A stretch of DNA of 64,000 bases from an uncultured Alphaproteobacteria bacterium (GTDB lineage Bacteria > Pseudomonadota > Alphaproteobacteria > Rs-D84): NCBI GenBank assembly GCA_905233975.1, contig CAJOGD010000001.1, positions 162,635 to 226,634 of the forward strand. Reading direction: 5' to 3'. Shown here piece by piece: positions 37,848 through 59,437 of the stretch. The translations under genes and the position numbers were made by a program. Position 1 is the stretch's first letter; each line of letters opens with the position of its first letter. Below the pieces are notes generated by a model. The model had not been told where the DNA came from and did no database searches. It saw only the letters and a program-made list of their open reading frames with translations.

Positions 37848-38126
37848 GTGGCGAGTGTTAGTGCTAGTGATTGGTGCGCGGGGCAACAAAGCCCCGCTTT
37901 TTTATTTCCGTCATATCGCGCTATCGGGCCCCGCAAAAAATGCCGTCATACCGCTGTAAAGCGGTATCTCGTCGGAACCGTCGCGGGGTAATTCTCAGAA
38001 AAGCCTAAGGAGATACCGCGTCAGGCGCGGTATGACGGCTTGAAATCACCCACAAAAAACGCTATGCGTTTTTTGCGGGGGCCGATACCGCGGGGTGACG
38101 TCACTAATACTTCCCACTAATTATTG
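37848..38126. mobile_element. MITE-like composite repeat (~280 bp). TTAGTG-type terminal arms enclose nested palindromes.
   Basis: Left arm gtggcgagtgttagtgctagtgattggtg. Right arm gtcactaatacttcccactaattattg. Internal: gcggggcaacaaagccccgctttttt (the accC terminator), gtcataccgctgtaaagcggtat, ataccgcgtcaggcgcggtatgacgg and cccacaaaaaacg..cgttttttgcggggg. Confidence 0.6.
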
Positions 38127-39128
38127 ATTCTGGGGGATATAAATTGTTTCTCCGTTCCAATCTTCTTCCACCGGCGTGGCAAGTGGATAATACACCGTCA
38201 CCGGTGTTCCTGCGGCGTATTGCCCGGCAAGATAGGCTTCAAAATCGGCAATTGTTGGATAATTAACACGCGACACATTCACCGTAAATGAACCAACACC
38301 ATCTATACGGGCATAGCGCAAAGCCGACGTTATTGCATCTGCGTTATACTGGTAATTTCCCTGTCTTGGAAAGTTTGAATAATAACCACTAGTTGCCCAA
38401 TTTAACCACTCTTCTGTTCCGTCCAAAACCTTTACCCCAACGCGTCGTGTGATTTTGTGGGTTGTGGCGTCGTATGAATCGGCATAGTCGCCAACGCGAC
38501 GCAGAATTAGGTTATCTTGTTGATAAAAAACGGGATAAATCGGATTTTCTGGCGTCGGTGTGCCGTCTTGTGTGACGGTGCCGGTCGCCGAAACGTATTC
38601 GGTGTTATTATGTATCGTATAGAGCCAACAAAGGTTGGACACCGGATCGCGGTTATCTTCCCTACATACAAATTCACTATCAAGACCATTCTTTAATGCC
38701 GCGTTGAACGTTTTGGCGTCAATCAGGTTGTCGGATTGGGTGGCATACGATTCGCTTGTTTGATAAATTCCTTTCCGCCCTATTCCACCCGGTTGGCCTG
38801 TATATGTGACGGCGGTGTGATCGTTAACCGGGCCAATGTCATCTTGCTTTTGATTTAATTTTGTATTCACACCACCAACCATGGGCAGTGATGTGTCGGA
38901 CGTATCGCTACCCAAATCGGATTTAACTGTGCGTTTCTGCACATCGCCGGCCGAATTAGTGTATTCCATGGCCTTGTCCGCTTCCGCGGTAAATTTATTT
39001 TGTCGTGTACTAAGTTCATGTTCGACATATTTTAATGACGTCGCCGTCTTGCGGTCCGCGGCTTCTTCCGCCACCGCCGGCAACACCGCCGCAATTAATC
39101 CGAACAACAAAAACTTTTTCAAAAACAT
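38121..39128 (-). CDS. Secreted variable-family protein, paralog 2 (ends YIPQNQ)
   Basis: Start set at MFLKKFLLFGLIAAVLPAVA (SD 'aaggggagg'). The N-terminal 170 aa are conserved. The C-terminus is unique. Confidence 0.8.
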   Translation of the reverse strand: MFLKKFLLFGLIAAVLPAVAEEAADRKTATSLKYVEHELSTRQNKFTAEADKAMEYTNSAGDVQKRTVKSDLGSDTSDTSLPMVGGVNTKLNQKQDDIGPVNDHTAVTYTGQPGGIGRKGIYQTSESYATQSDNLIDAKTFNAALKNGLDSEFVCREDNRDPVSNLCWLYTIHNNTEYVSATGTVTQDGTPTPENPIYPVFYQQDNLILRRVGDYADSYDATTHKITRRVGVKVLDGTEEWLNWATSGYYSNFPRQGNYQYNADAITSALRYARIDGVGSFTVNVSRVNYPTIADFEAYLAGQYAAGTPVTVYYPLATPVEEDWNGETIYIPQNQ

Positions 39129-39385
39129 TTTCCTCCCCTTTGTTCTTTGCACTAACACTAAGTAAAAAACCACAGAAAACGTGTGGTTGGAGGTTAACGA
39201 CTATAATGTTCGGAAAATAGTGGGCTTATTCGATATATTCACCGCCCTCCAACCAAATTAGGTTGGAGGTGTTTTATGTCCCCGCGGACACCGAACATTA
39301 TAAAGGGTCGTTACACCACATCGGCGGAACACCCACCGACAGACCTATTCTATCAAAAAACGGAAATAAAAAACAAGAGAAAAAA
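39129..39385 (-). promoter_or_regulatory. Type-B conserved 5' leader: extended -10 box, a conserved hairpin, and a terminator-like hairpin 35 nt before the start codon
   Basis: Box TTTTGATAGAATAG (rc of 39346-39357). Hairpin cctccaacc-N7-ggttggagg (39245-39269). Hairpin aaccacag-aaaacg-tgtggtt plus a U-run (39163-39189). About 200 nt are almost identical to 58157-58320. Confidence 0.6.
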
Positions 39386-39538
39386 GTGGTTAGTGTTAGT
39401 GATTAGTGTAAGTGGTTTGTGTTCCGCCTTCGCTGTCGCTGCGCCGCGACTGCGCCAGGGTTTCGCCCCGGCTTGGTGTAAAAGAAACGGGCGCAAATGC
39501 GCCCGCACTAATCACTTACACTAACACTTTTCACTATC
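39386..39538. mobile_element. MITE-like repeat with TTAGTG or CACTAA inverted arms (~150 bp)
   Basis: Left arm gtggttagtgttagtgattagtgtaagtggtttgtg. Right arm cactaatcacttacactaacacttttcactatcc. GC-rich palindromes lie inside. Confidence 0.6.
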
Positions 39539-40132
39539 CTATATCAAACAAGACAATGCGGCGCTGGTGTTCTTTAATAAAAACCATCCGATATGATAAT
39601 TTGTTAAATACACCGTTATCATAAATATCGCAAAGATACCAACAACAACCGTCACCGCCGCACGCCGGCCGCGCATGCAATACAGTGCGATATTGTAAAA
39701 CAAAAACAGCACATATAAATCGCCAACGATACTGATTATCCACATGGAAAGGCAATTAAACGCGGCCGCATTCAACGCCAATATTACGGGATATATAAAA
39801 AATATCGACGCCAAACCCTTTATCGCAATTTCCCAATCGCGTTCGCCACCCGTTATTTCGGAAACCAACATCAACAGGCCCCCGCCGACAAACAACAATG
39901 CGACCGCAACGACCGGAACGATTATAACCGCCGTAAAGACAGAATTTATTGTTATCGTCGCGCCCCCCAGCAATTTCATTCCTAAAACCAGCAGGCCGCC
40001 CAACAATCCATATATAAACGCCTTTAACATAGATTCTTCGATATCGCCGTCGGCAACAATTTTTGAAAAGAATCTGCGCGGGTTCACAATAATATCTTTG
40101 ATAGACCGAAACCAATTTTTTATTTTTTTCAT
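39539..40132 (-). CDS. Yip1-domain family membrane protein
   Basis: Five predicted TM helices and an N-terminal soluble region. 197 aa. Confidence 0.45.
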   Translation of the reverse strand: MKKIKNWFRSIKDIIVNPRRFFSKIVADGDIEESMLKAFIYGLLGGLLVLGMKLLGGATITINSVFTAVIIVPVVAVALLFVGGGLLMLVSEITGGERDWEIAIKGLASIFFIYPVILALNAAAFNCLSMWIISIVGDLYVLFLFYNIALYCMRGRRAAVTVVVGIFAIFMITVYLTNYHIGWFLLKNTSAALSCLI

Positions 40133-40209
40133 AATGCGCCCCTTTTGCTTCCTTTATTTGATTATTTATATTTTTGCTTTATAATTACAAAAAATCAATG
40201 GAAAAACGC

Positions 40210-41541
40210 ATGAAGAAAATTGCCATCGCCGGACGGCCAAACACCGGCAAATCGACACTGTTTAACGCCCTGACGGGGACGCGGGACGCGTTGGTGCACG
40301 ACCGCCCCGGGGTCACGCGCGACACAATTTGTGGAACAATGACGTTTCGGGCGGATTGCACATTGTGCGATACGGCGGGGTTGGAAAACGCGCGCGCGGG
40401 TATTGCCGCCGATTCAACAAACATGGCGATTGATGCGATTTCTGGGGCCGATGCGATTCTGTTTGTCGTTGATGGGCGCGCCGGATTATTGCCCGAAGAT
40501 ATGAACTGGGCGCGCGCCGTTCGTCGCAAAACTAAATCGCCAATATTGTTGTTGGTGAATAAATCGGAATCAGTGCGGCGACTGGGCGATGTGCATGAGT
40601 TTTATAAGTTGGGCTTTGGCGAACCGGTTTTGATTTCGGCGGAACATAAACGCGGATTTGATGAAATTTTCGAATTTATAAATCGTGTTGCGCCGGAAAC
40701 GGATTCCATGGCGGCAAAACCTGAAGAAAGTCGCATAAAGATTGCAATTTTGGGACAACCGAATGTCGGAAAATCAACCCTGGTTAATCGTGTGTTGGGT
40801 GAAAACCGCCAAATTGTAAAGGACGAACCCGGTGTGACACGTGATACGGTTAAAATCCCGGCGCGGTTTTATGGACGCGAAATATTATTGATGGATACGG
40901 CGGGATTGCGGCGTAAATCCAATGTGCGCGACGATGTTGAAACGCTATCTGCGCTAAAATCGATTGACGCCATAGACAAGGCGAACGTCGTTATCTTGGT
41001 CGTTGACGCCACGCGCGATATTGAAAACCAGGCGTTGGGCATTGCCGCGCGTGTTTACGACGCCGGAAAAATTCTGTGCGTTGCGTTGAATAAATGGGAC
41101 CTGGTGCCGGCGGAAGAACGCGATGAAAAACTGTTGAAACTTAAACACCATTTTGCGAATTCGTATCATCAGATAATAAAGCCGATGATGTTGGCGATTT
41201 CTGCGGAAACCGGAACCGGCGTTCAAAATATGTTTAAACGCATTTACGAACAATGGGACATTTCGACTGCAACCGCACCAACAAGTTTGATAAATAAAAT
41301 CATCGCGGAATTGGTTGAAAAGCGGCAACCGCCTATGTCGCGCCTTAAACGCCCGATGAAGATAAAGTTCGCGTCACAGACCGGCCGGCACCCAATGCGC
41401 ATTACGATAAATGTTGGTGGCGCGTCGGACATACCGGAATCATATACGCGATACCTGCGCCGCGGAATTGCGAACGCGTTGCATTGGGAACATTTGCCGA
41501 TAGTTATCGAATATAAAAAATCAGAAAACCCGTTTGACTAA
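40210..41541 (+). CDS. der: Ribosome-biogenesis GTPase Der (EngA), tandem GTPase domains
   Basis: Two G1 motifs, GRPNTGKST and GQPNVGKST, and a C-terminal KH-like domain. The start was set at MKKIAIAG. Confidence 0.9.
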   Translation: MKKIAIAGRPNTGKSTLFNALTGTRDALVHDRPGVTRDTICGTMTFRADCTLCDTAGLENARAGIAADSTNMAIDAISGADAILFVVDGRAGLLPEDMNWARAVRRKTKSPILLLVNKSESVRRLGDVHEFYKLGFGEPVLISAEHKRGFDEIFEFINRVAPETDSMAAKPEESRIKIAILGQPNVGKSTLVNRVLGENRQIVKDEPGVTRDTVKIPARFYGREILLMDTAGLRRKSNVRDDVETLSALKSIDAIDKANVVILVVDATRDIENQALGIAARVYDAGKILCVALNKWDLVPAEERDEKLLKLKHHFANSYHQIIKPMMLAISAETGTGVQNMFKRIYEQWDISTATAPTSLINKIIAELVEKRQPPMSRLKRPMKIKFASQTGRHPMRITINVGGASDIPESYTRYLRRGIANALHWEHLPIVIEYKKSENPFD

Positions 41542-41594
41542 ATCCTTGAATTTTAATAATGGTCTGCTATGCTGATGTGCAAAAGGAAGACGGT

Positions 41595-43121
41595 ATGGAT
41601 ACCAATTACACTGTTTTGGCGCGAAAGTATCGCAGTCAGGATTTTCAATCTCTTATTGGCCAAGATGTTTTGGTTAAAACACTAACGACCGCAATTAAAA
41701 CCGGCCGCATTGCACACGCATATATTTTCACCGGAATTCGTGGAACCGGAAAAACCAGTACTGCACGTATTCTGGCCAAGGCGTTAAATTGCCTGTCGTC
41801 TGATGGACCGACGGCAACGCCATGTGGAACGTGTGAAAATTGTCGTGCAATTGCCGCGGGGCAACATATCGACGTGTTGGAAATCGACGCGGCGTCGCAT
41901 ACGGGCGTTGATAACATGCGCGAAATTTTGGACGCGGCACAGTATCGTCCAACCAATGGCCGGTACAAGGTTTATATTATCGACGAAGTTCATATGCTTT
42001 CGTCCAGTGCGTTTAACGCGTTGCTTAAAACATTGGAAGAACCGCCGGCACATGTGATATTCATACTTGCCACCACCGAAATACGCAAGGTTCCCGTCAC
42101 GATTCTTTCGCGGTGTCAACGTTTTGACCTGGTGCGCGTTCCGGTTGATACATTGAAAAAACATTTCGCATGGATTGCGGACCAAGAAAAGGTCGAATTA
42201 AGTGACGCGGCAAATGAATTACTCGCGCGGGCGGCGGACGGTTCTGTGCGTGACGGGCTTTCGTTGCTTGACCAGGCGATTGCGCAAACCGGCGGACACG
42301 TTGATGAAAAATCCGTTATGGATATGTTAAAGCGCGCGGATCGCGGTGTTGTCGTTGACTTTATGCAAACGATTTTATCTGGGAATGTCGCGGCGGCACT
42401 TGCCAAAACGGACGAGATTTATACGAATGGCGCGGACCTGACGATGTTGCTGACCGACATGATGGAATGGGTTCATTGGGCAACGCGTATGCATCCCGTT
42501 CTGCGCGCGGGCGATAGCAATCATGTCCCATATACCGCGGACCAGCGCGAACGTATAAATGAAATAAATAAACATGTGTCGTTGAATACCCTATCACGAA
42601 TATGGCAGGTTTTGGTCGCGTCTGTGTCCGAAATGGCGGCGGCGACGAATCAAAAGCAATGTTTTGATATGTTGGTAATTCGGTTAATGCATGTTGCGGA
42701 TATGCCGTCTTTGCCGGAAATATTGAAACAGGAAAAAACCGACGCACCGCGGCCGGCACCAAAAATCGAAGAACCGAAAAAATTAGAAATTCGTTCTGCG
42801 TCAGAATTGGCGGACGCATTGGAACGTGCGCGCGAAATGTTGCTCTATTCATATTTCACGAAAAATATAGAGGTTTCAGATTTTTCCGGCACGCATATAT
42901 CTTACTTTGACCGCGGCAATGATTCTGATTTCCAAAAGAAATTGGTCGCGTGGTTAAACAGTAAGACCGGCGCAAATTGGGTCGTGGAAAAAATTGAAAA
43001 ATCCGCACTTAACCAAACTGTCGGTGAACAAGAAAAGGCCGCGGCCGAATCTGATCCGATGGTTGCGGATGCGATGTCATTGTTCGAAGGTGCGGAAATC
43101 GTCGGTATTGCAAAACAATAA
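41595..43121 (+). CDS. dnaX: DNA polymerase III subunit gamma/tau
   Basis: AAA+ GIRGTGKTSTARILA, zinc module CGTCENC, SRC motif. The start was set at MDTNYTVLARKY (SD 'aaggaag'). Confidence 0.85.
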   Translation: MDTNYTVLARKYRSQDFQSLIGQDVLVKTLTTAIKTGRIAHAYIFTGIRGTGKTSTARILAKALNCLSSDGPTATPCGTCENCRAIAAGQHIDVLEIDAASHTGVDNMREILDAAQYRPTNGRYKVYIIDEVHMLSSSAFNALLKTLEEPPAHVIFILATTEIRKVPVTILSRCQRFDLVRVPVDTLKKHFAWIADQEKVELSDAANELLARAADGSVRDGLSLLDQAIAQTGGHVDEKSVMDMLKRADRGVVVDFMQTILSGNVAAALAKTDEIYTNGADLTMLLTDMMEWVHWATRMHPVLRAGDSNHVPYTADQRERINEINKHVSLNTLSRIWQVLVASVSEMAAATNQKQCFDMLVIRLMHVADMPSLPEILKQEKTDAPRPAPKIEEPKKLEIRSASELADALERAREMLLYSYFTKNIEVSDFSGTHISYFDRGNDSDFQKKLVAWLNSKTGANWVVEKIEKSALNQTVGEQEKAAAESDPMVADAMSLFEGAEIVGIAKQ

Positions 43122-43140
43122 TTGTTATATGGGGGGAAAT

Positions 43141-43596
43141 ATGAAAACCGAATCAGGACGTTCTTTGATTGAAATCATTGGGGTTGTGGCCGTCACCGGG
43201 GTAATGACGGCGGGCGCGATTGCGATATATAATTCAATACGACATAATCAACGGAATACTATTGCCGCCGCCGAATTGCGTCAACTTGCCAAGGATATAA
43301 ACATGCTGATGGGAATGCGTGGTGATTACACCGGCATATCTGTCGATTATTTGGTCAAGGCGGGCGCATTACAAAACCCCAACGCGCCGATTGGCAAAAC
43401 ATGGACCATTGATGTTGGGATTGATAAAACAACATTTGTGATAAATATATACGGCATGTCGCGCGGCGAATGTGAATTCTTTGCGTCTGCGGCACCGGCA
43501 TGGGCAACAGGCATGTATATCAATGGATACCGGGCCGAAGAAGTTGTGAATTGTTTTGACGGTACCGAAAACAATATTTCTTTTACGGGTATGTAG
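43141..43596 (+). CDS. Type IV pilin-like or pseudopilin-like protein with an atypical prepilin N-terminus
   Basis: MKTESG|RSLIEIIGVVAVTGVMTAGAIAIY. Gly(-1), Glu(+5) and a hydrophobic helix are present. Arg replaces Phe or Met at +1. A C-terminal Cys pair is present. SD 'ggggg'. Confidence 0.5.
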   Translation: MKTESGRSLIEIIGVVAVTGVMTAGAIAIYNSIRHNQRNTIAAAELRQLAKDINMLMGMRGDYTGISVDYLVKAGALQNPNAPIGKTWTIDVGIDKTTFVINIYGMSRGECEFFASAAPAWATGMYINGYRAEEVVNCFDGTENNISFTGM

Positions 43597-43597
43597 T

Positions 43598-44275
43598 ATG
43601 CATCGGTTAATGGTTGCGACTTTTGCATTGTTATTTGTGTCCGGCTGTATGTCGTACAGAAGCCCGGACCGTTCCACATGGTCAACCTATTTGTATGGTG
43701 CAAGTTTTACCGACATGACCGAAACCGCACGAATTGCGAAAAAACCGATTTACCAAGGCCGGGGCGGAAAAACGGTGGCCGAAGTTTCTGACCAAAACCC
43801 GGGCATGGAATATGGCGATAAAAATCAAAACGAATCGGCGATGTATGTTGAATATATGTCTGAATTGGAAAGCGCGTTATATGACGCGTTGCGCCGTCCC
43901 GGCCTTTCGGTCCAACGTGCCGGCACAGACGTCGTGGTCATATTGGTTCGCGATGCGATTATGGAATTGAACGCCCCGGAAATATCGGCGGACGGCGACG
44001 ACAACCTTGGCACTATTGCAAAAATTTTAAAGAAATATGACGCGACGTTTGTTGAAATTGCGGGCTATACCGATTCTATGCGTGACACAAATGCGGCGCG
44101 TGCATTTTCATTGGACATGGCGGAACGCGTCGGTGTTTATTTGTCGCGTTATGGTGTAAAGACCGCACGCATGTTTATCGTTGGTCGCGGGTCCGCACGC
44201 CCGATTGCCGCCCAAGATGAATGGGGCCGCCTTACCAATCGGCGCGTTGAATTAAGAATATCGCCCGTTCGATAA
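43598..44275 (+). CDS. OmpA-family lipoprotein (peptidoglycan-binding)
   Basis: Lipobox LFVSGC. C-terminal OmpA-domain motifs TDSMRDTNAARAFSLDMAERV...NRRVELRI. Confidence 0.7.
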   Translation: MHRLMVATFALLFVSGCMSYRSPDRSTWSTYLYGASFTDMTETARIAKKPIYQGRGGKTVAEVSDQNPGMEYGDKNQNESAMYVEYMSELESALYDALRRPGLSVQRAGTDVVVILVRDAIMELNAPEISADGDDNLGTIAKILKKYDATFVEIAGYTDSMRDTNAARAFSLDMAERVGVYLSRYGVKTARMFIVGRGSARPIAAQDEWGRLTNRRVELRISPVR

Positions 44276-44352
44276 AAAAATAATAAAATTGTCTTTTATT
44301 TTTTATTTTTTGTTGTTATAGTCACACCGTCAACAAAACAAAAGGAAGAAAA

Positions 44353-45021
44353 ATGGTAAAAACAAAAACTCAAGCCGGGGAGACGGCAACAAAAAAATAT
44401 GTTAAATTTGGTATCGTGGCGGCTATCGTAATCGCGGTTGCGGTTATTGGCCTGTTCGCTGTCAGGGCTTTTTCGGGCAGAACGGTTAGCGCCGAAACGG
44501 CGATTGACGGCATTACACCTGACGCGGTATCTGGTGGCGATTTGCGTGTTGCGGTTGTGCGTATGGACGCGATTCAGTCCGAGGCCAAGGCCCTGCAGGA
44601 TTTGCGCAAACAACGTGAAAACTATGAAAGCAAACTGCGTGATGAATTGACCAAGGAACAAAAAGAATTGGAAAAAGAAAAAGAAGAAATCGAAAAATCC
44701 CAAGACGTCTTGTCCCAGGAAGCATTGCAACGTCGCGTTGTTGAATACCAAGGCAAGGTGACAAAATTGCAACGTGATTTGACCGAACGTGCCCAGGCTG
44801 TGGACGCCGCGTTCCAAAAGGCGTTGGTCGAAATCCAAGAAAAGCACCTTGATCCGATTATCGAAGCGGTTATTGCGAAAAAGAATTTGTCTTTGGTAAT
44901 TGATGGTCGTTTTGCGCGTGTTGCACCAAACATTGAAAACCTGGATATCACCAACGATGTTATCAAGGCGTTGGATAAAAAGGTTTCGAATGTAAAAATG
45001 GAAACACCGAAAGGGTTTTAA
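44353..45021 (+). CDS. skp: Skp/OmpH-family periplasmic chaperone
   Basis: N-terminal TM or signal segment, then a long coiled coil rich in K, E and Q (LQDLRKQRENYESKLRDELTKEQKELEKEKEE). SD 'aaaggaag'. Confidence 0.6.
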   Translation: MVKTKTQAGETATKKYVKFGIVAAIVIAVAVIGLFAVRAFSGRTVSAETAIDGITPDAVSGGDLRVAVVRMDAIQSEAKALQDLRKQRENYESKLRDELTKEQKELEKEKEEIEKSQDVLSQEALQRRVVEYQGKVTKLQRDLTERAQAVDAAFQKALVEIQEKHLDPIIEAVIAKKNLSLVIDGRFARVAPNIENLDITNDVIKALDKKVSNVKMETPKGF

Positions 45022-45122
45022 TGGAAAGTGTTTAGTGTTAGTGAAACCGGCGCACCCGCGCCGGTTTTTTACTACCCCGAAATACAATGGACAAACGTGC
45101 CGCGTTTGCGTAGAATGCATGC

Positions 45123-45428
45123 ATGGCATCAAGTAAAGATTTTTTGGAATTTGTATTGGACGGGCTATGCGAATTGCCCGACATAACATATCGCGCGATG
45201 ATGGGCGAATATGTCATTTACTATCGCGGCAAAGTTGTTGCGGGAATCTATGACAATCGTTTTTTGGTAAAACCAACGCCGGGCGTATTACGAATTGTTC
45301 CAAATGCGCCAATGGAAATACCATATGACGGCGGCCGCCCAATGATTATGATAGAAGACGCGGAAAACCGCGCATTGTTGCGTGAACTGTTCGACGCGAT
45401 ATATAACGATTTGCCAAAGAAAAAATAA
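45123..45428 (+). CDS. TfoX/Sxy N-terminal-domain protein (101 aa)
   Basis: RAMMGEYVIYYRGKVVAGIYDNRFLVKP matches the TfoX_N pattern (R.MFGG..lY..G..fa.v.d..LylK). Confidence 0.45.
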   Translation: MASSKDFLEFVLDGLCELPDITYRAMMGEYVIYYRGKVVAGIYDNRFLVKPTPGVLRIVPNAPMEIPYDGGRPMIMIEDAENRALLRELFDAIYNDLPKKK

Positions 45429-45431
45429 TTA

Positions 45432-46397
45432 TTATTGGTTTTGCGGGATATACACGTTTTTGTATGGTTCGTATTCTGTAATAACGTCACCTTGTTCCAA
45501 CTGCAAACCGTTCGCAAGTTGTATAAGCTGGTTTTGTGAAAATGAACCGAAACTTGAAATATTTATATATGCCGCATTATCTTGGAAAGTCCAACGCCTG
45601 CCTAGCCATATATGGTCGTTATTGGCACTGGTGGTATGCGCTGAAATTATCCGACCGTTTGCATCATAAACATATAAATTAAACTGTGTTGTAATATTAC
45701 AATTGGTAGAACCATTATAACTCAATATATACGTTTCACCGCCAATAATCGGAATAGGTGAACCGTTTGCCAATTTACCAGCGTTAGGTGCTTGGGTCGT
45801 ATACGTGGCGCCCCCATAGCTAGCCCAATCATTAAAACCAATATTGTTTTTATTAAATAAATTTTTGGTGTGTTCTTCGGTTGGGTTGTGTATCGAATAC
45901 ACCCAACAAAGGTCTGTTCCGGGTTTAAATTCCTTACATTTGAATTCTCTATCAAGTCCCTTCTTTAATGCGGCGTTAAAGGTTTTGGCGTCGATTAAAT
46001 TATCCGATTGTTCGGCGTATGTGCCGGTTGTCTGATAAATTCCTTTCTGCCCTATTCCGCCGGAATCACCGGTATATGTGACGGCGGTATGGTCGTTCAC
46101 CGCGGCGATGTCGTCCTGTTTTGTATCAAGTTTTGTATTCACGCCACCAACCATAGGCAGTGAATCTGTCCCGCCATTATCTAAATCCGATGTGACCGCA
46201 CGTTTTTGCACCGTTCCGGCCGCATTAGTATATTCCATCGCCTTGTTTGCTTCCGCGGTAAATTTATTTTGACGTGTATCAAGTTCATGTTCGACATAGT
46301 TAAGTGACGTTGCTGTTTTGCGGTCCGCGGCTTCCTCCGCCACCGCCGGCAATATTGCCGCCATCAACCCGAACAACAAAAACTTTTTCAACTGCAT
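45432..46397 (-). CDS. Secreted variable-family protein, paralog 3 (ends YIPQNQ)
   Basis: Start at MQLKKFLLFGLMAAILPAVA (SD 'aaggaga'). The N-terminus is conserved. The unique C-terminus contains a QLEQGDVITEYEPY jelly-roll-like terminal strand. Confidence 0.8.
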   Translation of the reverse strand: MQLKKFLLFGLMAAILPAVAEEAADRKTATSLNYVEHELDTRQNKFTAEANKAMEYTNAAGTVQKRAVTSDLDNGGTDSLPMVGGVNTKLDTKQDDIAAVNDHTAVTYTGDSGGIGQKGIYQTTGTYAEQSDNLIDAKTFNAALKKGLDREFKCKEFKPGTDLCWVYSIHNPTEEHTKNLFNKNNIGFNDWASYGGATYTTQAPNAGKLANGSPIPIIGGETYILSYNGSTNCNITTQFNLYVYDANGRIISAHTTSANNDHIWLGRRWTFQDNAAYINISSFGSFSQNQLIQLANGLQLEQGDVITEYEPYKNVYIPQNQ

Positions 46398-46800
46398 ATC
46401 GCTCTCCTTTTCTTTTTTCCCCGTCATCCCGCGCTTGACGCGGGATCTCCCCGTTATTGTCGCGGTTTTGCCCCTCGACGGCTCCGACGGGATTCCGGCT
46501 TTCGCCGGAATGACGGCTTTATGTAAGTCTCACTAGCCACTAACACTTACACCAAAATAAGTGCCGCAATGGAAACCAAGCGGTCGGGGTGTTCGAAAAT
46601 CATTTATGTCATTGATTCCCATGGCCTTTTGCAAAAGCATTATAGCCATAGGCACCCCAACATTGGGGTAAAATCTATAACGGTGCAAAACACGAATGGA
46701 GATTACGTGGATTACGATGCTTTGCACCGGACATAAACAGGCTTTCGACAGCCACGAACCAGATTCCCATCTGACTCACATTCATTATATCAAAAACCTT
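46398..46800 (-). promoter_or_regulatory. Type-A conserved 5' leader (second copy) with an upstream palindromic repeat module
   Basis: Box TGATATAAT (rc of ~46784-46793), a perfect extended -10. The covarying hairpin ccccaatgttgggg stands in for ccccgaataaaaggttcgggg of copy 1. It shares caccccgaccgcttggtttccattgcgg. Confidence 0.55.
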
Positions 46801-46817
46801 GGAAATGCGTCAAGACG

Positions 46818-46842
46818 AAAAAACGGCGCATACGCGCCGTTG
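46818..46842 (-). terminator. Rho-independent terminator after the sspB-like gene
   Basis: Hairpin aacggcgcatacgcgccgtt followed by a T-run on the reverse strand. Confidence 0.55.
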
Positions 46843-51182: not shown

Positions 51183-51187
51183 AGCCA

Positions 51188-51922: not shown

Positions 51923-53136
51923 CATTTAATGACATAATAAAAGAATCGTGGCTTTCAATAAGCGCCAATAAAATCCGTTCGTTTTTAACGGTGCTGGGCA
52001 TAATTATTGGCGTGTTGGCGGTTGTGATAATGGTTGCGGTTGGCGAAACGGTGCAAACCGAAATAACGGATCAGTTTTCATCACTTGGCACAAATACAAT
52101 TGTGATACGCGCGGGCGCGGCACGAATTGGCGGTGTGCGCAGTGGAAATCTGCAAACACTTACGACGGATGATGCGGCGATAATTGCAAGGTTGCCCGAT
52201 GTTGCGGCAATCACCCCGGTTCAGGCATCGGCCGCACATGTTGTTTATGGAAACAAAAACTGGGCAACATCAATGATTGGTGTGTATCCGGATTATACAA
52301 CGGTGCAAAGTGTTGATATTGAATATGGCGCATTCTTTGACGACAGTGCCGTTCGTAATGCATCAACATACGCGGTAATCGGTCCCAAGACGGCCACTGA
52401 ACTCGGCATGGATAAAAACCCTGTGGGCGAAGTAATTCGTATTCAAAATGTGCCATTTGTTATTGTGGGCGTTGCTAAAGAACGCGGCGATACCGCGATG
52501 GGTTCCCAAGATGATATGGTCATGATACCGATTACAACATTAAAAAAACGACTCCAGGGAAGTAAATTTCCAAATTCGGTCAGTATGATTGCACTTAAAC
52601 TTTTCCAAGACGCCGATAATTCCGTTGTGATTGACCAGATTTCCGCCCTGCTCCGCGATCGCCACAGATTGAAAGACGGCGACGAAGATGACTTTCAAAT
52701 TATGGACATGCGACAAATAATGGAAACTATGACAACCGTTACGGGTTATTTGAAATTGTTATTAATAGCGATTGCGGCGGTATCTCTGCTCGTCGGCGCG
52801 ATTGGCATTATGAACATGATGTTGGTGTCGGTCGCAGAACGCACACGCGAAATCGGTATTCGCAAGGCAATCGGCGCGCGCGAACGCCACATAATAACGC
52901 AATTTTTGGCCGAATCCATTATGATATCTTTTATCGGTTCAATGATTGGTCTTGTCCTGGGCGTCGGCCTATCCCAAGGTGTCGGGCGTTTTATGCTTGG
53001 TTATAATGTCCCGTTTAGTTTATGGCCCGTAGTGCTTTCGATAACCGTCGCGGTTGTCGTTGGCCTTGCGTCCGGCGTGGTCCCGGCAATAAAAGCCGCA
53101 AAACTAAACCCAATTGACAGTCTGCGATATGAATAA
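51919..53136 (+). CDS. ABC transporter permease (FtsX/MacB family)
   Basis: N-terminal TM, a large periplasmic domain, and a C-terminal FtsX-type TM bundle. The start overlaps the ATPase stop. Confidence 0.75.
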   Translation: MTFNDIIKESWLSISANKIRSFLTVLGIIIGVLAVVIMVAVGETVQTEITDQFSSLGTNTIVIRAGAARIGGVRSGNLQTLTTDDAAIIARLPDVAAITPVQASAAHVVYGNKNWATSMIGVYPDYTTVQSVDIEYGAFFDDSAVRNASTYAVIGPKTATELGMDKNPVGEVIRIQNVPFVIVGVAKERGDTAMGSQDDMVMIPITTLKKRLQGSKFPNSVSMIALKLFQDADNSVVIDQISALLRDRHRLKDGDEDDFQIMDMRQIMETMTTVTGYLKLLLIAIAAVSLLVGAIGIMNMMLVSVAERTREIGIRKAIGARERHIITQFLAESIMISFIGSMIGLVLGVGLSQGVGRFMLGYNVPFSLWPVVLSITVAVVVGLASGVVPAIKAAKLNPIDSLRYE

Positions 53137-53137
53137 T

Positions 53138-54004
53138 TTATTTTGATAATTTTTCATACATTGCCGATAGAAATGGAATATCGACCCTAACCTCGTTCGC
53201 CTTGGTGACAAGTGCGGCAAGTGCTGATAATCCTTCGACGGTGCCAATGGGCTTTTCGCCCTTTGCAAGCGCAACACCCGCAGAAAAATTACGGCTTGTT
53301 GTCGATGTGGCGGTCAGCAATAAATCACCAAGCCCACAAAAATCAAGAAATGTTTTCTCCAGGGCGCCCAATTTTAACCCCAATCGAACAACATCGTTCC
53401 ACGTGGTCGTCATGGAAAGCGCGGATTCGTTTTCCCCCCTGCCCTTGACTTTAACATAACCACTAATCACAGAAACCGCATTTTTACCAACGCCACAAAG
53501 AATAGTTCCAATGACATCGTCAGTATAGCTTAGGTATAATTGGTTAAACACCTTTTCGCCGATATTGTGAATCTTGTCACTGCCTGCAAGTGTTGAACCC
53601 GTTGGGACGCCATGTGCAACCTCGCCCGCGAATTGCGGCCCCGATAAAACACCAATGTTTTGCTTGGCGGGTTTGATTGTTTCATACAAAACCTCGGTCA
53701 TGAATTTACCGGTTTTCGGTTCCGCGCCCTTGGTGCAAATAATAATCGGTTGACCGGCATAAAAATCTTTGGCCTTTGCCATGGTATCACGAAAGAAAGC
53801 CGCCGGTGTGACCGCAATCCATGTATCACAGTCTTGCAAATCGCCCATATTCATCGTCACAATCACGCGTTGTGGTAAATCGATACCATCAAAATGTTCA
53901 TAGTTTCCTTCGAACGACCACAAAACAACATCGTTTCCGCCACGCGCAACAGTATGTGCAAGCGCACTGCCCCATGCTCCTGCGCCTATGATTCCTACTT
54001 TCAT
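53138..54004 (-). CDS. gpsA: Glycerol-3-phosphate dehydrogenase [NAD(P)+]
   Basis: Rossmann motif KVGIIGAGAWGSALA and GpsA-like catalytic region. Confidence 0.7.
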   Translation of the reverse strand: MKVGIIGAGAWGSALAHTVARGGNDVVLWSFEGNYEHFDGIDLPQRVIVTMNMGDLQDCDTWIAVTPAAFFRDTMAKAKDFYAGQPIIICTKGAEPKTGKFMTEVLYETIKPAKQNIGVLSGPQFAGEVAHGVPTGSTLAGSDKIHNIGEKVFNQLYLSYTDDVIGTILCGVGKNAVSVISGYVKVKGRGENESALSMTTTWNDVVRLGLKLGALEKTFLDFCGLGDLLLTATSTTSRNFSAGVALAKGEKPIGTVEGLSALAALVTKANEVRVDIPFLSAMYEKLSK

Positions 54005-55611
54005 TTTATTTTCCTTATTTTTTTCTGTATATTTGGCACGACAACCAAACCATCTTCGGACAATTCAATTGCCCGATTATACGCCTCTCGTGCAAGGCCC
54101 GGCTTGCCCGCGGCCACATATGCGTCACCCAAATGTTCAAACAGCGATGAACACGAATTTGCGGTTCCTGCAATCTTTTCAAGTATATCCAATGCCTCGT
54201 CATTCCCTTCGCGGACCGATACAACAACCGCAACGGTATCCCACGCAAATATGTCCATAGGGTCGAGTTTAACCATTGCCATGGCATAGGTATAGGCCTC
54301 TTCTATTTCGCGTTCCTGGGCGGCCCAGATTCGTGCCTGAATAGCCAATATTTCTGGGTCCGGTATTTGGGCTTTTGCAATTTCTCGAATATCGCTTTGG
54401 GCGCGCTCATAATCGCCGAACATCATATAAACAAATGCGCGTTTCTTCATCAGGTATGCACGCCCCGATTCAGAAAGATTTTCATTATCCAACGTGCGAT
54501 TTATCACGCGCAAGGCATGTGATTTGTCCCCTGCCCTGATATGTGCCGCAACGATTTTGTTAAGCGCGGGAATAAACAACTGGTGCGCCCGCAAAATCTT
54601 TTCAATTTCAATAATGGAATCTGTGGTTTTCATTTTTGCGAACAGATAGAACGGACTATCCGCCGAAATAGAATTAAAATAATGTGCATAATTTCCATGT
54701 GTGTTCGCAAAAAACTGTCCGGTGTAGTAATTTATCATGTCTTGAAAGAATTGCGAATCTTGACCGATTATTTGCGCAAAACGCAACATTAACACCGAAA
54801 GATCGGAATAAAGCATTACTTGCGAATGCGAAACATTTTGAATCACATTAAAGGCCAATTCGTTCTTGGTGCCCGCAAAGGTCGTTTTCCAATCCGGAAT
54901 ATCGTCATAGTAAGACAAAAACATTCCGCCCGGTGTTGCGGAAAAACTTTGTTTCAAAATCTCTGCGTTTTCATTCATGCCATGTGTGCGATAAAACGAC
55001 ATGATATAGATATAATCGTTCATGTTCATAAAATCCGTACGAACATTGGCAAACGCGCCAGCGGCCTTTTCGAAATCGCCAGATTCTGCATATATTTGGC
55101 CGCGCACGAACATTTTCCACGACGGATTAGATTCTAACTTTTCTATATATTTTAAAACGTCCTTTGTGTGCCCTGCCCCGACGCCGGACCAAATACGAAA
55201 AGGCGCATATATCGTAAGCTTGTCGGCGTGGTGCCGTTTGTACAGGTCGGCCCAACGATTGTTTTTGGCCAGGTACGCGTCGTATATAATTTTTGCCGCA
55301 ATGCCCTTTTCGTCGGCAAGTTTTTTCACGTCCTTTGGAATGTCGCCAGACAGGAAATCGACCAATGCACGCGTATCTTGGACAACGCCATATTCGACAT
55401 CGTTAACACCGTCCATAAATTCTTTAGCTTTATCAAAATCATTCGCGTAAACCGCATGCTGGGCGGCCAAGAAATCGCCGTATTTGCAAGATTCGGTTTC
55501 GTTTGTATCCGGTAATTTTTCCGCCGAAAAAATATGCAGGGACGCGACGTAGATTAAAACTCCGACTATTGTGAATAACCCGCAAAAAAATAACGTTTTT
55601 AATTTTGTCAT
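54001..55611 (-). CDS. Membrane-anchored TPR-repeat protein (536 aa)
   Basis: N-terminal TM followed by many TPR-like repeats. Confidence 0.55.
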   Translation of the reverse strand: MTKLKTLFFCGLFTIVGVLIYVASLHIFSAEKLPDTNETESCKYGDFLAAQHAVYANDFDKAKEFMDGVNDVEYGVVQDTRALVDFLSGDIPKDVKKLADEKGIAAKIIYDAYLAKNNRWADLYKRHHADKLTIYAPFRIWSGVGAGHTKDVLKYIEKLESNPSWKMFVRGQIYAESGDFEKAAGAFANVRTDFMNMNDYIYIMSFYRTHGMNENAEILKQSFSATPGGMFLSYYDDIPDWKTTFAGTKNELAFNVIQNVSHSQVMLYSDLSVLMLRFAQIIGQDSQFFQDMINYYTGQFFANTHGNYAHYFNSISADSPFYLFAKMKTTDSIIEIEKILRAHQLFIPALNKIVAAHIRAGDKSHALRVINRTLDNENLSESGRAYLMKKRAFVYMMFGDYERAQSDIREIAKAQIPDPEILAIQARIWAAQEREIEEAYTYAMAMVKLDPMDIFAWDTVAVVVSVREGNDEALDILEKIAGTANSCSSLFEHLGDAYVAAGKPGLAREAYNRAIELSEDGLVVVPNIQKKIRKIK

Positions 55612-55637
55612 TTGTGAAAATATGCTACAATAATAAT

Positions 55638-56210
55638 ATGAATAGTAAAGAAAAATTTATACGCTATGCGGAAATTCTGCGCGATTGGAATTCGCGAATG
55701 AATCTTGTTGCGCGCGGCACGTTGGACGATATTGAAAACCGGCATTTTGCGGATTCGGCGCAGCTTGCGGACGTTTTGCCAACGGGCGTCCATGTTATCG
55801 ATTTTGGGTCTGGGGCCGGGTTCCCGGGTGTGGTTTTGGCGATTTTGGGCTGGCACGTGACATGTATCGAATCGATTGGCAAAAAAGTATCTTTTCTAAA
55901 TGAATTAAAAACGAAACTTGAACTTGAAAATCTAACAATTTATCATGGGCGGGTTGAAGACTTTTTGCCGGGCTTTTTGAACAAAAATGCAAAAAAAGCC
56001 GGGGATTTTGTTATAACCGCACGTGCTTTCGCGTCACTTGTAAAGATTTTAGATTATGTTCGGGGGATAAATTGCCGGCTTTTTTTGCTAAAAGGCCGGG
56101 AAATAGAAAGTGAAATTGCTGACGCAAAAAAGAAATATCGGTTTGATTATGAATTGACGCCATCGAAAACGGGCGACGGTTTTGTAATAAGTGTGCGATT
56201 CGGATTATAA
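55638..56210 (+). CDS. rsmG: 16S rRNA (guanine527-N7)-methyltransferase RsmG (GidB)
   Basis: SAM motif VIDFGSGAGFPG. It lies upstream of parA-parB. The start was set at MNSKEKFIRY. Confidence 0.8.
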   Translation: MNSKEKFIRYAEILRDWNSRMNLVARGTLDDIENRHFADSAQLADVLPTGVHVIDFGSGAGFPGVVLAILGWHVTCIESIGKKVSFLNELKTKLELENLTIYHGRVEDFLPGFLNKNAKKAGDFVITARAFASLVKILDYVRGINCRLFLLKGREIESEIADAKKKYRFDYELTPSKTGDGFVISVRFGL

Positions 56211-56329
56211 TTTCATGTGAAATAACGATTAGCGTATTGATTTTACGGCATTTTTTAATTTTGTTTTTTATTTCTTGATTCTGGGGCGGTTCGTTTATAT
56301 ACTGCAACAAAAAGAACGAAGGAAAGGAT

Positions 56330-57103
56330 ATGACGGAAATAATCGCGTTTGCAAATCAAAAAGGTGGCGTTGGCAAAACCACGACGGCAATAAATTTGGG
56401 TGCTTCGCTTGCGGCGATAAAAAAACGGGTTTTGTTGATAGATTTGGATTCCCAGGGTAATGCCGGGACGGGTCTTGGGTTTGTGCGTTCTTCACACACG
56501 CAAAGTGTCTATGATGTAATTATGGGTGTGTCGGGCGTTGCGGAAAATATACTTTCGACCGCGGTCCCGGGCATGCACATCTTGCCATCGACCCAGGCAC
56601 TTGCCGGGGCCGAGGTTGAATTGCTGGACATGGAAAACAAAGAATATCGTCTGCGTGATGCGTTGCAACCGATAATGGAACACTATGATTATATTTTGTT
56701 GGATTGCCCACCAAATTTGGGGTATATAACGCTTAATGCGCTGACTACGGCAAATCATGTGATTATACCGCTGCAGTGCGAGTTCTTTGCTCTGGAGGGG
56801 GTTTTGCACCTTATAAATACAATCAAAGGTATTCGGGAAAAGTGGAATCCAAATTTAGATGTGTTGGGCGTTTTGCTGACCATGTACGATCGGCGGTATG
56901 GCATGACGCGTGATGTCGAAGACAATGTTCGCGAAACGTTCGGTGATTTGGTGTTCAAAACGGTTGTCCCGCGCAATGTCCGCGTGGCCGAGGCGCCAAG
57001 TCATGGCAAACCGGCACTGTTTTACGATTTTAATTCAAGCGGCGCCCAGGCGTATTTGCGCTTTGCGACCGAGGTTATTCAGAAAATAGAAAAGGGGGAA
57101 TAA
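56330..57103 (+). CDS. parA: Chromosome partitioning ATPase ParA
   Basis: Deviant Walker A NQKGGVGKTTT. Confidence 0.9.
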   Translation: MTEIIAFANQKGGVGKTTTAINLGASLAAIKKRVLLIDLDSQGNAGTGLGFVRSSHTQSVYDVIMGVSGVAENILSTAVPGMHILPSTQALAGAEVELLDMENKEYRLRDALQPIMEHYDYILLDCPPNLGYITLNALTTANHVIIPLQCEFFALEGVLHLINTIKGIREKWNPNLDVLGVLLTMYDRRYGMTRDVEDNVRETFGDLVFKTVVPRNVRVAEAPSHGKPALFYDFNSSGAQAYLRFATEVIQKIEKGE

Positions 57104-57104
57104 T

Positions 57105-57989
57105 ATGGGAAAATTTGGCCTTGGACGGAATTTAACGGATTTACAGACTGAAATGGGCGTGGCGCCGGAAATATCGATATTAAACGGCGCCGAACGTGTT
57201 GTTGTGCGGCAAATCCCGATGGCGCAAATCGGTGTGAACCCTGACCAACCGCGCAAGACATTTACTCCCGAAGATTTGGCGGATTTGTCGGCGTCTATAA
57301 AAGAGAAGGGCGTGTTGCAGCCGATTCTGTTGCGTTCGGTTAAAAATCGGCCGTATATGTATGAAATTGTCGCGGGCGAACGCCGCTATCGCGCAAGTAA
57401 AATGGCGGGCCTCTCCGAAATTCCGGCGTTGGTAAAGAATTTGGCGGACAATAATGCGATGGAAATCGCGCTGATCGAAAACGTGCAACGCGAAAACCTG
57501 AACCCGATAGAGGAGGCCGCGGCGTATGTGAACCTTATGAACAAATGTGAATACAGCATGGCGGACGTGTCTAATTTGATTGGGAAATCCGAAAGTTATA
57601 TCCGGAATTTGGTGCGCCTTAACGGTTTGCCGGTGTCGGTCAAAAAAATGGTAGAGCAGGGCGCACTTTCCGCATCGCACGCGCGTGCGATTGCCGTCGC
57701 CGAAGACCCGGAAAAAATGGCGCGCGAAATTGTAGCGCAAAAATTATCGGTCGCGGACACCGAAAAACGCATGAAAAACGTGGCGCGTTCCGGCCAAAAC
57801 CGCAAGTTTGCAAATAAAACCATGGACACAAAAACCGTCAAAGAATTGACGGCGCGTGCGGGGCGCGCCCTGGGTGCAACGGTCAAAATTACCGAAAAAC
57901 GCGGCGGCGCTGGCGTGATAACAATAAACTTTGACACGCGTAATCAGTTGAACGAAATCATCGACAAAATTGCCGGCCGAATCGCATAA
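57105..57989 (+). CDS. parB: Chromosome partitioning protein ParB
   Basis: ParB box GERRYRA and an HTH region. Confidence 0.9.
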   Translation: MGKFGLGRNLTDLQTEMGVAPEISILNGAERVVVRQIPMAQIGVNPDQPRKTFTPEDLADLSASIKEKGVLQPILLRSVKNRPYMYEIVAGERRYRASKMAGLSEIPALVKNLADNNAMEIALIENVQRENLNPIEEAAAYVNLMNKCEYSMADVSNLIGKSESYIRNLVRLNGLPVSVKKMVEQGALSASHARAIAVAEDPEKMAREIVAQKLSVADTEKRMKNVARSGQNRKFANKTMDTKTVKELTARAGRALGATVKITEKRGGAGVITINFDTRNQLNEIIDKIAGRIA

Positions 57990-58010
57990 AAATATCAAAA
58001 AACCCGGGAA

Positions 58011-58126
58011 GTGCAGTGTAAGTGTTAGTGGTTAGTGATAGTGACGTCATACCGCCCTTCGGCGGTATGACGCGGTTCAGGCAGAACTTACACTAATTAC
58101 TAATACTAATCACTAACACTAACCAC
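58011..58126. mobile_element. MITE-like element (~116 bp). TTAGTG and CACTAA inverted terminal arms surround a perfect hairpin.
   Basis: Left arm gtgcagtgtaagtgttagtggttagtgatagtg. Central hairpin acgtcataccgcccttcggcggtatgacg. Right arm ttacactaattactaatactaatcactaacactaaccac. Confidence 0.65.
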
Positions 58127-58130
58127 TTTT

Positions 58131-58486
58131 TTCACTTGTTTTTTGTTTCTGTTTTTTGATAGAATAGGGGTGTCGGTGGGTGTTCCGCCGGCGGGGTGTC
58201 AAGACCCTTGGGTTCCGGGTGTCCGCGGGGACATAAAATACCTCCAACCAAAAAGTGGTTGGAGGGCGGTGAATATATCGAATAAGCCCACTATTTTCTC
58301 GGAACATAGTCTTGAACCTCCAACCACTAGAAGATTTTCGGTGGTTTCGTTTATTTGTGTGCAAATAAACGAAACAGCAGAGAACCGTCATTCCGGCGAA
58401 TCCGCCGCGGATTGGGTCTCTGCAACACTTAGGAGATACCGCGTCAAGCGCGGTATGACGAGAAAAAAGGAAACAAGGGGAGAAAA
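58131..58486 (+). promoter_or_regulatory. Type-B conserved 5' leader (second copy): extended -10 box plus a ~310-nt structured 5' UTR
   Basis: Box TTTTGATAGAATAG (58157-58168). Hairpin cctccaacc-aaaaagt-ggttggagg (58241-58265). Terminator-like hairpin aaccac..gtggtt plus a U-rich run (58311-58345). Palindromes ccgtcattccggcgaa.. and gagataccgcgtcaagcgcggtatgacg come before SD 'aaggggag'. Confidence 0.6.
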
Positions 58487-59437
58487 ATGCAATTGAAAAA
58501 GTTTTTGATGTTCGGGTTGATGGCGGCGGTGTTGCCGGCGGTGGCGGAAGAGGCCGCAGACCGGAAAACGGCGACGTCATTAAAATACGTCGAACATGAA
58601 CTTGATACGCGTCAGAATAAATTTACCGCGGAACAAAACAAAGCCATGGAATACACCGATTCGGCCGGCGTGGTGCAAAAACGTGCCGTCACGTCGGACC
58701 TGGATAATGGTGGAACCGATTCGTTGCCCATGGTTGGTGGTGTGAATACAAAACTAAACCAAAAACAGGACGACATCGCCGCGGTCAACGACCATACCGC
58801 CGTCACATATACCGGGCAGCCCGGCGGAATAGGGCGGAAAGGAATATATCAGGCCACCGAATCGTATGCCAACCAATCTGATAACCTTATCGACGCCAAA
58901 ACGTTCAACGCGGCACTTAAAAACGGACTTGATAGCGAATTTAAATGCAGGGAAGATAACCGCGATCCAGTGTCCGGACTTTGTTGGCTCTATACGATAC
59001 ATAACACCAGTCCGAATTTGTTTGATAAAAATAATTTAACACGCATATATGGTTATTTCCCATCTAGCGGTTCAGATTGGACGTATGTAACCGCAGGATA
59101 TTCAATAAGAATACCATGTCAGCCAAGCACAACATATACGGCGCGTTATAATGGCAATAGTTCCCAAGTTGTATTATCCTTTGCGTCCACAGGCAGTGAT
59201 GAAATACCATTGGGTGGATCGCGTGTTGCATGCACTAACAGTATTCGGCAAAACAACCCAACAATCGATACGCCAATAACATTCACTACTGGTCCAAATG
59301 ACAAATGGCTAATTGTTCAATACAATGTTAACGAACCACAAAATACCGACATGGCAAACAATCTACAGGTTGAAATTGGTTCAACCGCAACACCGTACGT
59401 TCCATACGGCAGCGTTTACATTCCACAGAACCAATAA
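58487..59437 (+). CDS. Secreted variable-family protein, paralog 4 (ends YIPQNQ)
   Basis: MQLKKFLMFGLMAAVLPAVA signal. The N-terminus is a mosaic of paralogs 2 and 3. The unique C-terminus carries LQVEIGSTATPYVPY, a jelly-roll-like terminal strand. Confidence 0.8.
   Translation: MQLKKFLMFGLMAAVLPAVAEEAADRKTATSLKYVEHELDTRQNKFTAEQNKAMEYTDSAGVVQKRAVTSDLDNGGTDSLPMVGGVNTKLNQKQDDIAAVNDHTAVTYTGQPGGIGRKGIYQATESYANQSDNLIDAKTFNAALKNGLDSEFKCREDNRDPVSGLCWLYTIHNTSPNLFDKNNLTRIYGYFPSSGSDWTYVTAGYSIRIPCQPSTTYTARYNGNSSQVVLSFASTGSDEIPLGGSRVACTNSIRQNNPTIDTPITFTTGPNDKWLIVQYNVNEPQNTDMANNLQVEIGSTATPYVPYGSVYIPQNQ

Follow-up and report, generated by a model that had tools for sequence, protein, structure and literature searches.

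How do the copies of a dispersed gene family come to resemble one another in different ways from one segment to the next? This question is raised by four paralogous genes (P1 to P4) in a 64,000-nt stretch of DNA from an uncultured alphaproteobacterium of the Rs-D84 lineage (contig CAJOGD010000001.1, positions 162,635 to 226,634; "the window" denotes this whole stretch). An original prediction, whose numbering of the paralogs we retain, had described a patchwork of shared motifs in their N-terminal parts, attributed it to repeated recombination between copies, and seen in it the machinery expected for swapping C-terminal specificity domains. Our analysis, conducted throughout on metagenome assemblies (assembly k = 141), indicates that the N-domain mosaics were probably made by short-tract ectopic gene conversion between paralogs, carried out by general homologous recombination. 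On a scale of ~1% genome divergence, such conversion still goes on.

The window is core chromosome, containing pheT, ileS, mnmG, metG, lpxD, fabZ, accC, der, recF and gidB-parA-parB, and its IleRS is up to 96% identical to those of metagenome-assembled genomes (MAGs) named Candidatus Enterousia or rumen Alphaproteobacteria. Four intact paralogs lie dispersed among these housekeeping genes within 64 kb (Table 1); P1 falls outside the 38121-59437 range covered by the original prediction. All four share a Sec-type signal peptide (...LPAVA followed by EEAADRK, with an AXA motif before EEAADRK, as read from the sequence) and a conserved N-domain of ~155 aa, in which two cysteines are invariant. The C-terminal part, here termed the C-module, is wholly different between copies, and the proteins have a shared end, YIPQ(N/E)Q. 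The motifs quoted in support of the patchwork are all present as claimed. P1 and P2 carry DLGSDT(T/S)DTSLP, and P3 and P4 carry DLDNGGTD-SLP; in a second block, P1 and P3 read KCKEFKP(D/G)TDLCWVYSIHNPT, and P2 and P4 read (V/K)CREDNRDPVS(N/G)LCWLYTIHN; and NLF(N/D)KNN is common to P3 and P4.

We quantified the conflict in a codon-based nucleotide alignment of the N-terminal ~530 nt of the four genes, which provided 522 ungapped columns and 60 quartet-informative sites. Within alignment nt 1-339, 22 sites grouped P1 with P2 and P3 with P4 (12/34) vs 5 that grouped P1 with P3 and P2 with P4 (13/24), and within nt 353-531 the balance was 21 sites for 13/24 vs 2 for 12/34. A breakpoint analysis, the kind of check that had been proposed, returned a significant breakpoint (maximum chi-square, site order permuted, p = 3e-4), with the switch near codon 115. 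The 12/34 signal of the first segment is also borne by nine sites at which all four copies have synonymous codons, and a further switch lies upstream, where P1 and P3 have one leader type and P2 and P4 another. The closest pair in each segment is ~84% identical; at this level P1 to P4 are not recent donors of each other, and they are a sample of a much larger exchanging family.

This mosaicism extends across the family. Among 96 family N-domains, 52 columns had two or more common alleles, and all four allele combinations were found in 1109 of the 1326 pairs of such columns (84%). Linkage decayed with distance, mean r2 being 0.48 between neighboring columns, 0.12 at 9-15 residues and ~0.04 at more than 15. 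Both states of the two motif blocks described above co-occur in all four combinations. Each combination was found with all C-module classes apart from the tandem one, where only xKP-type junction blocks occur. At the nucleotide level, a PHI-type test on six same-genome paralogs of the window strain (labels such as W2, W4, W5 and W6 refer to these) gave p = 2e-4, and Sawyer-type runs of concordant polymorphic sites were detected between W2 and W5 (23 sites, global p = 0.005) and between W4 and W6 (20 sites, global p = 0.017). Together with the comparison of strains described below, these data bear out the proposal that the patchwork stems from recombination among paralogs.

Strain B, represented by contigs from other rumen samples that we compared with the window strain at the P1 to P4 loci, is collinear with the window at all four loci (its P4 ortholog is syntenic, in the same parB-[gene]-ompA position) and differs from it by 1.2% outside the paralog loci. 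The N-domain and C-module differed by 13.3% and 1.8%, respectively, at locus 1, by 15.3% and 7.5% at locus 2, by 3.9% and 4.0% at locus 3, and by 12.8% and 10.7% at locus 4 (loci numbered after their paralogs). The P1 C-module, for which the family set offers no relative beyond ~40% identity, stays at background while the adjoining N-domain is ten-fold hotter. It serves as an internal control, and the contrast is the one predicted if exchange requires a paralogous donor.

The differences between strains are patchy, with 9-34 changes clustered in 55-180 nt and identical stretches between the clusters. Paralog DNA was available for 13 copies in total from the window strain and strain B. Both alleles recurred in at least one of the 11 other sequenced paralogs for 80-89% of the sites that differ at the three divergent loci, and for 67% at locus 3. 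Random mutation at the same sites would be expected to give about 41-46% (~41-43% where 80-89% was observed). Particular donors are indicated for some tracts: the strain-B P4 ortholog matches W6, which belongs to another locus, at 11 differing sites in succession (nt 75-120, p = 0.005), and further sites as far as nt 153 also match W6, several of them with a base unique to W6 among the other paralogs. Likewise, W2 matches W5 over nt 414-468 (p = 6e-4). Of the N-domain codons that changed, about three in four are synonymous (39:11, 42:15 and 37:13 codons), as expected if old, selection-filtered variation is being shuffled. Changes in the C-modules are synonymous and replacement in about equal measure.

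These observations are consistent with a simple mechanism. Because N-domain DNA is the only long stretch common to all copies, general homologous recombination would repeatedly copy short tracts there, from tens of nt up to ~120-180 nt, between paralogs. Old, mostly synonymous variation would in this way be scrambled into a different mosaic for each locus and each strain, and the unique C-module cores would keep their identity because they have no donor in the genome. We infer that the exchange is intragenomic and RecA-type.

The C-module cores of P2 and P4 present an observation of their own. Both contain tight clusters of replacement changes between the strains, for example ALRYARI vs AFAISRT, and no homologous donor for these changes was found among the sequenced paralogs. 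The clusters suggest diversifying selection or allelic import acting on binding modules.

The conserved 5' leader or N-domain and the 3' YIPQNQ or CACTAA arm had been named as homology anchors for the exchange. Exchange is concentrated within the N-domain, where the paralogs have homology. The leaders are nearly identical between strains and so lie outside the hot tract. At the 3' end, 21-24 of the last 33 coding nt are identical between paralogs and the longest exact run is at most 9 nt; since the end is conserved as protein and not as DNA, YIPQNQ is better regarded as a functional motif than as a recombination anchor. P1 has no CACTAA-type hexamer tract, and some of these tracts stand in intergenic DNA away from any paralog. 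At the paralogs they lie just upstream of a promoter-like motif, TGATAGAAT, and a role associated with the promoter is more plausible than one as a recombination arm. The motif, an extended -10-like element that reads TGATATAAT at P3, precedes the start codon by 227-423 nt in 10 of the 13 paralogs and would, judged by sequence, be a promoter element, implying leaders of ~230-420 nt. A generic sigma-70 scan upstream of P4 gave no full promoter match.

These intergenic regions also vary in other ways. Upstream of P4, the window tract exceeds that of strain B by two units (12 nt), and a GT dinucleotide close by varies as well; this may reflect slipped-strand length variation beside a putative promoter. 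The conserved leaders, delimited by the TGATAGAAT or TGATATAAT motif and the start codons, are of two or more sequence types, with 75-86% similarity between subsets of paralogs; they contain strong hairpins and have no Rfam match, the Rfam scan of the window having returned three tRNAs and nothing else. Short palindromic REP/MITE-like elements with a GCGGTATGAC core are present in nine window copies, in intergenic DNA and often beside paralogs, and the two strains have different insertions of them immediately upstream of P3 and of P4, as well as downstream of P4. A 50-nt palindromic element follows the P2 stop codon directly and contains a near-variant of the GCGGTATGAC-type repeat; it recurs (98% identical) after the stop codon of the strain-B P4 ortholog and is not found after window P4. 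The dRS3-like palindromes of the window raised the possibility of a Neisseriaceae origin, which was rejected because no DNA uptake sequence was enriched and the IleRS assigns the window to Enterousia.

The further proposal, that the arrangement constitutes machinery for swapping C-terminal domains, was not supported. The C-module type is identical in both strains at 4/4 loci, and there are no silent cassettes and no template-like repeats. Searches of the window by tblastn with the whole proteins matched only the four full-length genes, leaving no truncated or partial copies and no silent cassettes there, and 13/13 copies examined in the fetched loci were full-length with a start codon and signal peptide. 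A repeat scan of the window for a template/variable repeat pair gave only the paralog N-domains, the leaders and the short palindromic elements. No reverse transcriptase, invertase or dedicated recombinase was found among the window open reading frames (ORFs) scanned, which were only some of the total. Shufflon-type inversions were likewise not seen, the window and strain B being collinear at all four loci with no invertase beside the genes. A diversity-generating retroelement was rejected, given the lack of template-like repeats in the window and of a reverse transcriptase among the ORFs scanned. Two proteins, P0003 and P0005, were considered as P4 orthologs with swapped tips and ruled out, as they belong to other loci, after rpmA and after ybaB.

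Could the same patterns have arisen otherwise? If divergent-lineage Enterousia DNA had been imported through homology in the housekeeping flanks, the loci could differ by allelic replacement, with ancient mosaics and no ongoing exchange between paralogs within a genome. Such import would account for divergent patches that reach into the 3' end of parB, for a 2-kb VirD4-like region that is 5-24% divergent, for clustered changes in C-module cores that have no in-genome homolog and for replaced 3' flanks, and a weak TfoX_N-like gene adjoins P3. At locus 1, however, the divergence is confined to the N-domain (13.3%), with the C-module (1.8%) and flanks at background; the patches measure tens of nt rather than kb-scale tracts; variant runs match particular paralogs from other loci; and the mosaic would still need an earlier round of interparalog exchange. 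As the full explanation we therefore consider allelic replacement unlikely. Much less probable is programmed antigenic variation of the msp2, vlsE or pilE/pilS type, in which an expression site is diversified from silent donor cassettes. Segmental tracts in a secreted protein family of a host-associated alphaproteobacterium do call such systems to mind, but the copies are all full-length as described above, those in the window carry a GGAG-type ribosome-binding site, the TGATAGAAT motif stands upstream of 10/13, and the converted part is the conserved domain, with mostly synonymous changes, and not a hypervariable exposed region. We give hardly any credence to an artefact, whether chimeric assembly across paralogs or convergence at a few selected motifs. 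In its favor, the gene family is repeated and the sequences derive from short-read MAG assemblies; yet same-genome paralogs share no exact match longer than 68 nt, which is below the assembly k, and identical proteins were assembled from several independent samples, making an assembly artefact unlikely. Moreover, the incongruent signal is also present at synonymous sites and linkage decays smoothly with distance across the 96 sequences.

Interparalog conversion thus remains the reading we favor, and several points weigh against it. With 13 paralog sequences, most patches have only partial donor matches. Divergence is also found where there is no paralog homology, namely at the parB 3' end, in the P2 and P4 C-module cores and in the VirD4-like gene, so that allelic import from other strains also operates and could explain part of the signal. 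The paralogs are only 75-88% identical, which means that conversion is not homogenizing them, and MutS and MutL, whose genes are encoded near the paralogs, should oppose exchange between copies so diverged. Finally, all of the sequences compared come from metagenome assemblies.

The four paralogs belong to a family that is undescribed, in that it has no prior name or annotation; exchange of this kind is well known in other families of surface proteins. At least 190 relatives of P4 were found in a large protein collection, all without a Pfam domain or name, and many sit on the same long contigs at about one copy per 20-25 kb. Extrapolated from this copy density, an Enterousia genome of ~0.9 Mb would hold some 35-45 intact, scattered copies. 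Scans of the four proteins against Pfam, PHROGs and NCBIfam yielded nothing meaningful (including no Peptidase_S74 in Pfam), and sequence and profile searches of the PDB gave no match. A search of the full library with the N-domain alone recovered 260 clusters at 50% identity. Distant members often align to N-domain residues 66-154 alone, and since many match only these residues, the Enterousia N-domain appears to consist of a core plus an N-terminal extension. A scan of a contig collection with the four-protein alignment produced 198 pattern sites, of which tblastn confirmed 0; related Enterousia genomes are in that collection, so the result does not mean that the family is absent and probably reflects a limit of alignment queries.

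Family proteins are 316-540 aa long, and we distinguished C-module classes among 96 close members: class b (LPxGYTxLEYIE..., 39 members), class c (YVSATGT...GTPTP..., 29), class a (NLFDK..., 12) and a tandem of a and b (16). AlphaFold models place a globular module directly after the N-domain. In these models the C-modules reach a pLDDT of ~90, as in P1 and P4, and the N-domains are poorly defined (30-55; ~45-55 in P4). Because the low-confidence N-domain depresses whole-model scores, use of Foldseek was limited to matches of the C-modules. The P4 class-a module matched phage tail-fiber, Dit and BppU carbohydrate-binding-like domains (BFVD, E down to 2e-6), with weak matches of class a to carbohydrate-binding modules (CBMs) and tailspikes in the PDB, and the P1 class-b module matched LamG/LNS domains (E~1e-5, TMt 0.5-0.6). 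As modeled, class a thus resembles a CBM-like beta-sandwich of phage-tail type and class b a laminin-G/concanavalin-like fold. The N-domain is probably an anchoring or oligomerizing stalk, and the proteins may serve as surface adhesins for a partner organism.

Module shuffling has happened, although it is visible, from sequence comparison, only at deep divergence. The P4 C-module is 61-75% identical to modules whose N-domains share just 30-45% identity or have a shorter architecture, and one family protein has the P4-type module in reversed order. Conversely, proteins with 92-94% identical N-domains carry C-modules that are 38% identical or of another fold, and the closest N-domain relatives of each window copy (90-94% identical) bear unrelated C-modules.

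Table 1. Positions of the paralogs, their parts and other features in the window (strand given where assigned).
Feature	Position	Strand	Remarks
P1	18942-20060	(-)	372 aa
P1 signal peptide	20004-20060	(-)	
P1 N-domain	19545-20003	(-)	conserved
P1 C-module	18942-19544	(-)	class b
P2	38121-39128	(-)	335 aa from ATG at 39128; GGAG-type ribosome-binding site before ATG
P2 N-domain	38607-39071	(-)	
P2 C-module		(-)	class c, with YVSATGT...GTPTPENPI motif
P2 C-module core	38232-38606		replacement clusters between strains
P3	45432-46397	(-)	321 aa from ATG at 46397
P3 N-domain	45885-46340	(-)	
P3 C-module		(-)	class-a beta-sandwich, starts NLFNKNN
P4	58487-59437	(+)	316 aa
P4 signal peptide	58487-58543	(+)	
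P4 N-domain	58544-59005	(+)	
P4 C-module	59006-59437	(+)	class-a beta-sandwich, starts NLFDKNN
P4 C-module core	59040-59339		replacement clusters between strains
Signal switch, 12/34 to 13/24	approx. 58822-58836	(+)	quartet sites; P4 coordinates (alignment nt 339-353)
CACTAA-type hexamer tract upstream of P4	58091-58122	(+)	
Extra two units in window	58093-58104		
Variable GT dinucleotide	58016-58017		
Similar hexamer tracts	58019-58037, 39390-39414, 39506-39524, 46531-46549, 37845-37869		
Hexamer tracts at sites unrelated to paralogs	34171-34196, 61522-39		intergenic
Extended -10-like motif, P4	58157-58165	(+)	TGATAGAAT; 330 nt upstream of start
Same motif, P1	about 20338-20346		
Same motif, P2	39347-39355		
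Same motif, P3	about 46784-46792		as TGATATAAT
Leader, P1	20061-20346		
Leader, P2	39129-39355		
Leader, P3	46398-46792		
Leader, P4	58157-58486		hairpin, e.g. 58241-58265
50-nt palindromic element	38058-38107	(-)	directly after P2 stop codon
Palindromic elements	3013, 23511-23614, 37945-38037, 58046-58062, 58450, 59439; also 46420-46530		
Divergent parB 3' end	57480-57960		
VirD4-like gene	26027-28285	(-)	divergent at 26016-28115
445-aa ORF	22039-23376	(-)	
57-nt direct repeats	21953-22009, 23632-23688		95% identical
167-aa ORF	16518-17021	(-)	
Poorly aligned between strains	16416-17015, 15516-16115		
Place of strain-B Fic gene	~37870-38120		

Elsewhere in the window, a few further differences separate the two strains (Table 1). 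A 445-aa ORF with a signal peptide, a coiled-coil-like region and no significant Pfam hit is absent from strain B, where fabZ is followed directly by a VIT1-like gene; the direct repeats that flank it suggest that it was inserted or deleted through them. Strain B in turn has a 339-aa Fic-domain gene (L054 11034-12053) between its P2 ortholog and accC; the corresponding space in the window is only ~270 nt long and is occupied by palindromic elements and TTAGTG hexamers. The gene for a VirD4-like type IV secretion coupling protein is 5-24% divergent between the two strains, with its neighbors at ~1%. An ORF without a Pfam domain encodes 167 aa in the window and 188 aa in strain B, and two segments in this region align poorly between the strains.

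What the family may do for its host is suggested by the biology of the lineage. Enterousia and the rest of the Rs-D84 order inhabit gut and rumen, have not been cultured and have genomes of <1 Mb (PMC12306168); Enterousia genomes, at 0.75-1.0 Mb, lack the tricarboxylic acid cycle, respiration and standard transporters, and dependence on a partner organism has been proposed (PMC12306168). For attachment to such a partner the paralog family offers a concrete candidate apparatus, being predicted from sequence to be secreted, modeled with lectin-like tips and very numerous. It is also the fastest-changing part of otherwise near-identical genomes. As a case of ectopic conversion shaping a multigene family it is a clean natural example, since strain divergence tracks the availability of paralogous donors and the C-modules without a paralog give a built-in control for donor dependence. 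A bolder joint reading, which we regard as speculative and rather improbable, is that ~5% of the genome forms a combinatorial attachment repertoire of phage-receptor-binding-like tips on a common stalk, with the stalk kept as a deliberately high-rate conversion substrate despite MutS/MutL. If so, conversion could keep the tips compatible with one anchor partner, vary the stalk against phages or antibodies, and provide the homology by which tips now and then move from one locus to another; the family would then be a cellular counterpart of phage tail-fiber evolution and a compact analogue of the mosaic adhesive trimer (MAT) fibers of Bdellovibrio.

The MAT fibers of Bdellovibrio bacteriovorus combine a signal peptide and a conserved N-terminal domain of ~130 aa with diverse C-terminal tips (PMC10769870). 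The Enterousia proteins can be likened to them by layout, with a signal peptide, a family-wide N-domain (~155 aa), diverse phage-like or lectin tips and many paralogs per genome, and the hosts may share a dependence on cell contact, which for Enterousia is suggested by metabolism. MAT fibers also have a long trimeric shaft of beta-helix or beta-prism type and, in one subfamily, an S74 chaperone-protease. Judged from their length (316-540 aa), the models and Pfam, the Enterousia proteins lack both; gene conversion was not a subject of the MAT work (PMC10769870). Phage receptor-binding proteins (tail fibers, Dit and BppU decorations) provide a second parallel, in that carbohydrate-binding-like modules are freely combined with N-terminal parts, in tandem and in reversed orders. 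Unlike these, the Enterousia genes are chromosomal, among core genes and not in a prophage, and their products are predicted to be Sec-secreted.

With respect to mechanism, two groups of systems are instructive. In Anaplasma msp2/msp3, Borrelia vlsE and Neisseria pilE/pilS, segmental conversion operates between an expression site and silent cassettes, and Anaplasma, too, is an alphaproteobacterium whose genome is reduced. As in these systems, short segmental tracts yield combinatorial mosaics of a secreted or surface protein; unlike in them, the Enterousia family has, among the copies examined, neither silent or truncated cassettes nor an apparent single expression site, and its variation does not fall on a hypervariable exposed region. 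The opa genes of Neisseria and babA/babB/hop of Helicobacter pylori are dispersed, intact outer-surface families that evolve by interparalog recombination. The Enterousia proteins are unrelated to theirs, are not beta-barrels and have no Pfam domain; here it is the conserved N-terminal domain that is exchanged, with mostly synonymous changes, the 5' coding sequence shows no coding-repeat phase switch, and the copy number is very high for a genome of ~0.9 Mb. In common with opa and bab/hop, the family consists of many complete copies among housekeeping genes, predicted to be separately promoted, its segments have conflicting phylogenies, the same locus varies between near-identical strains by short imported tracts, and no dedicated recombinase appears to be involved. 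Mechanistically, the Enterousia family thus works like opa or bab/hop and unlike the systems built on an expression site and cassettes.

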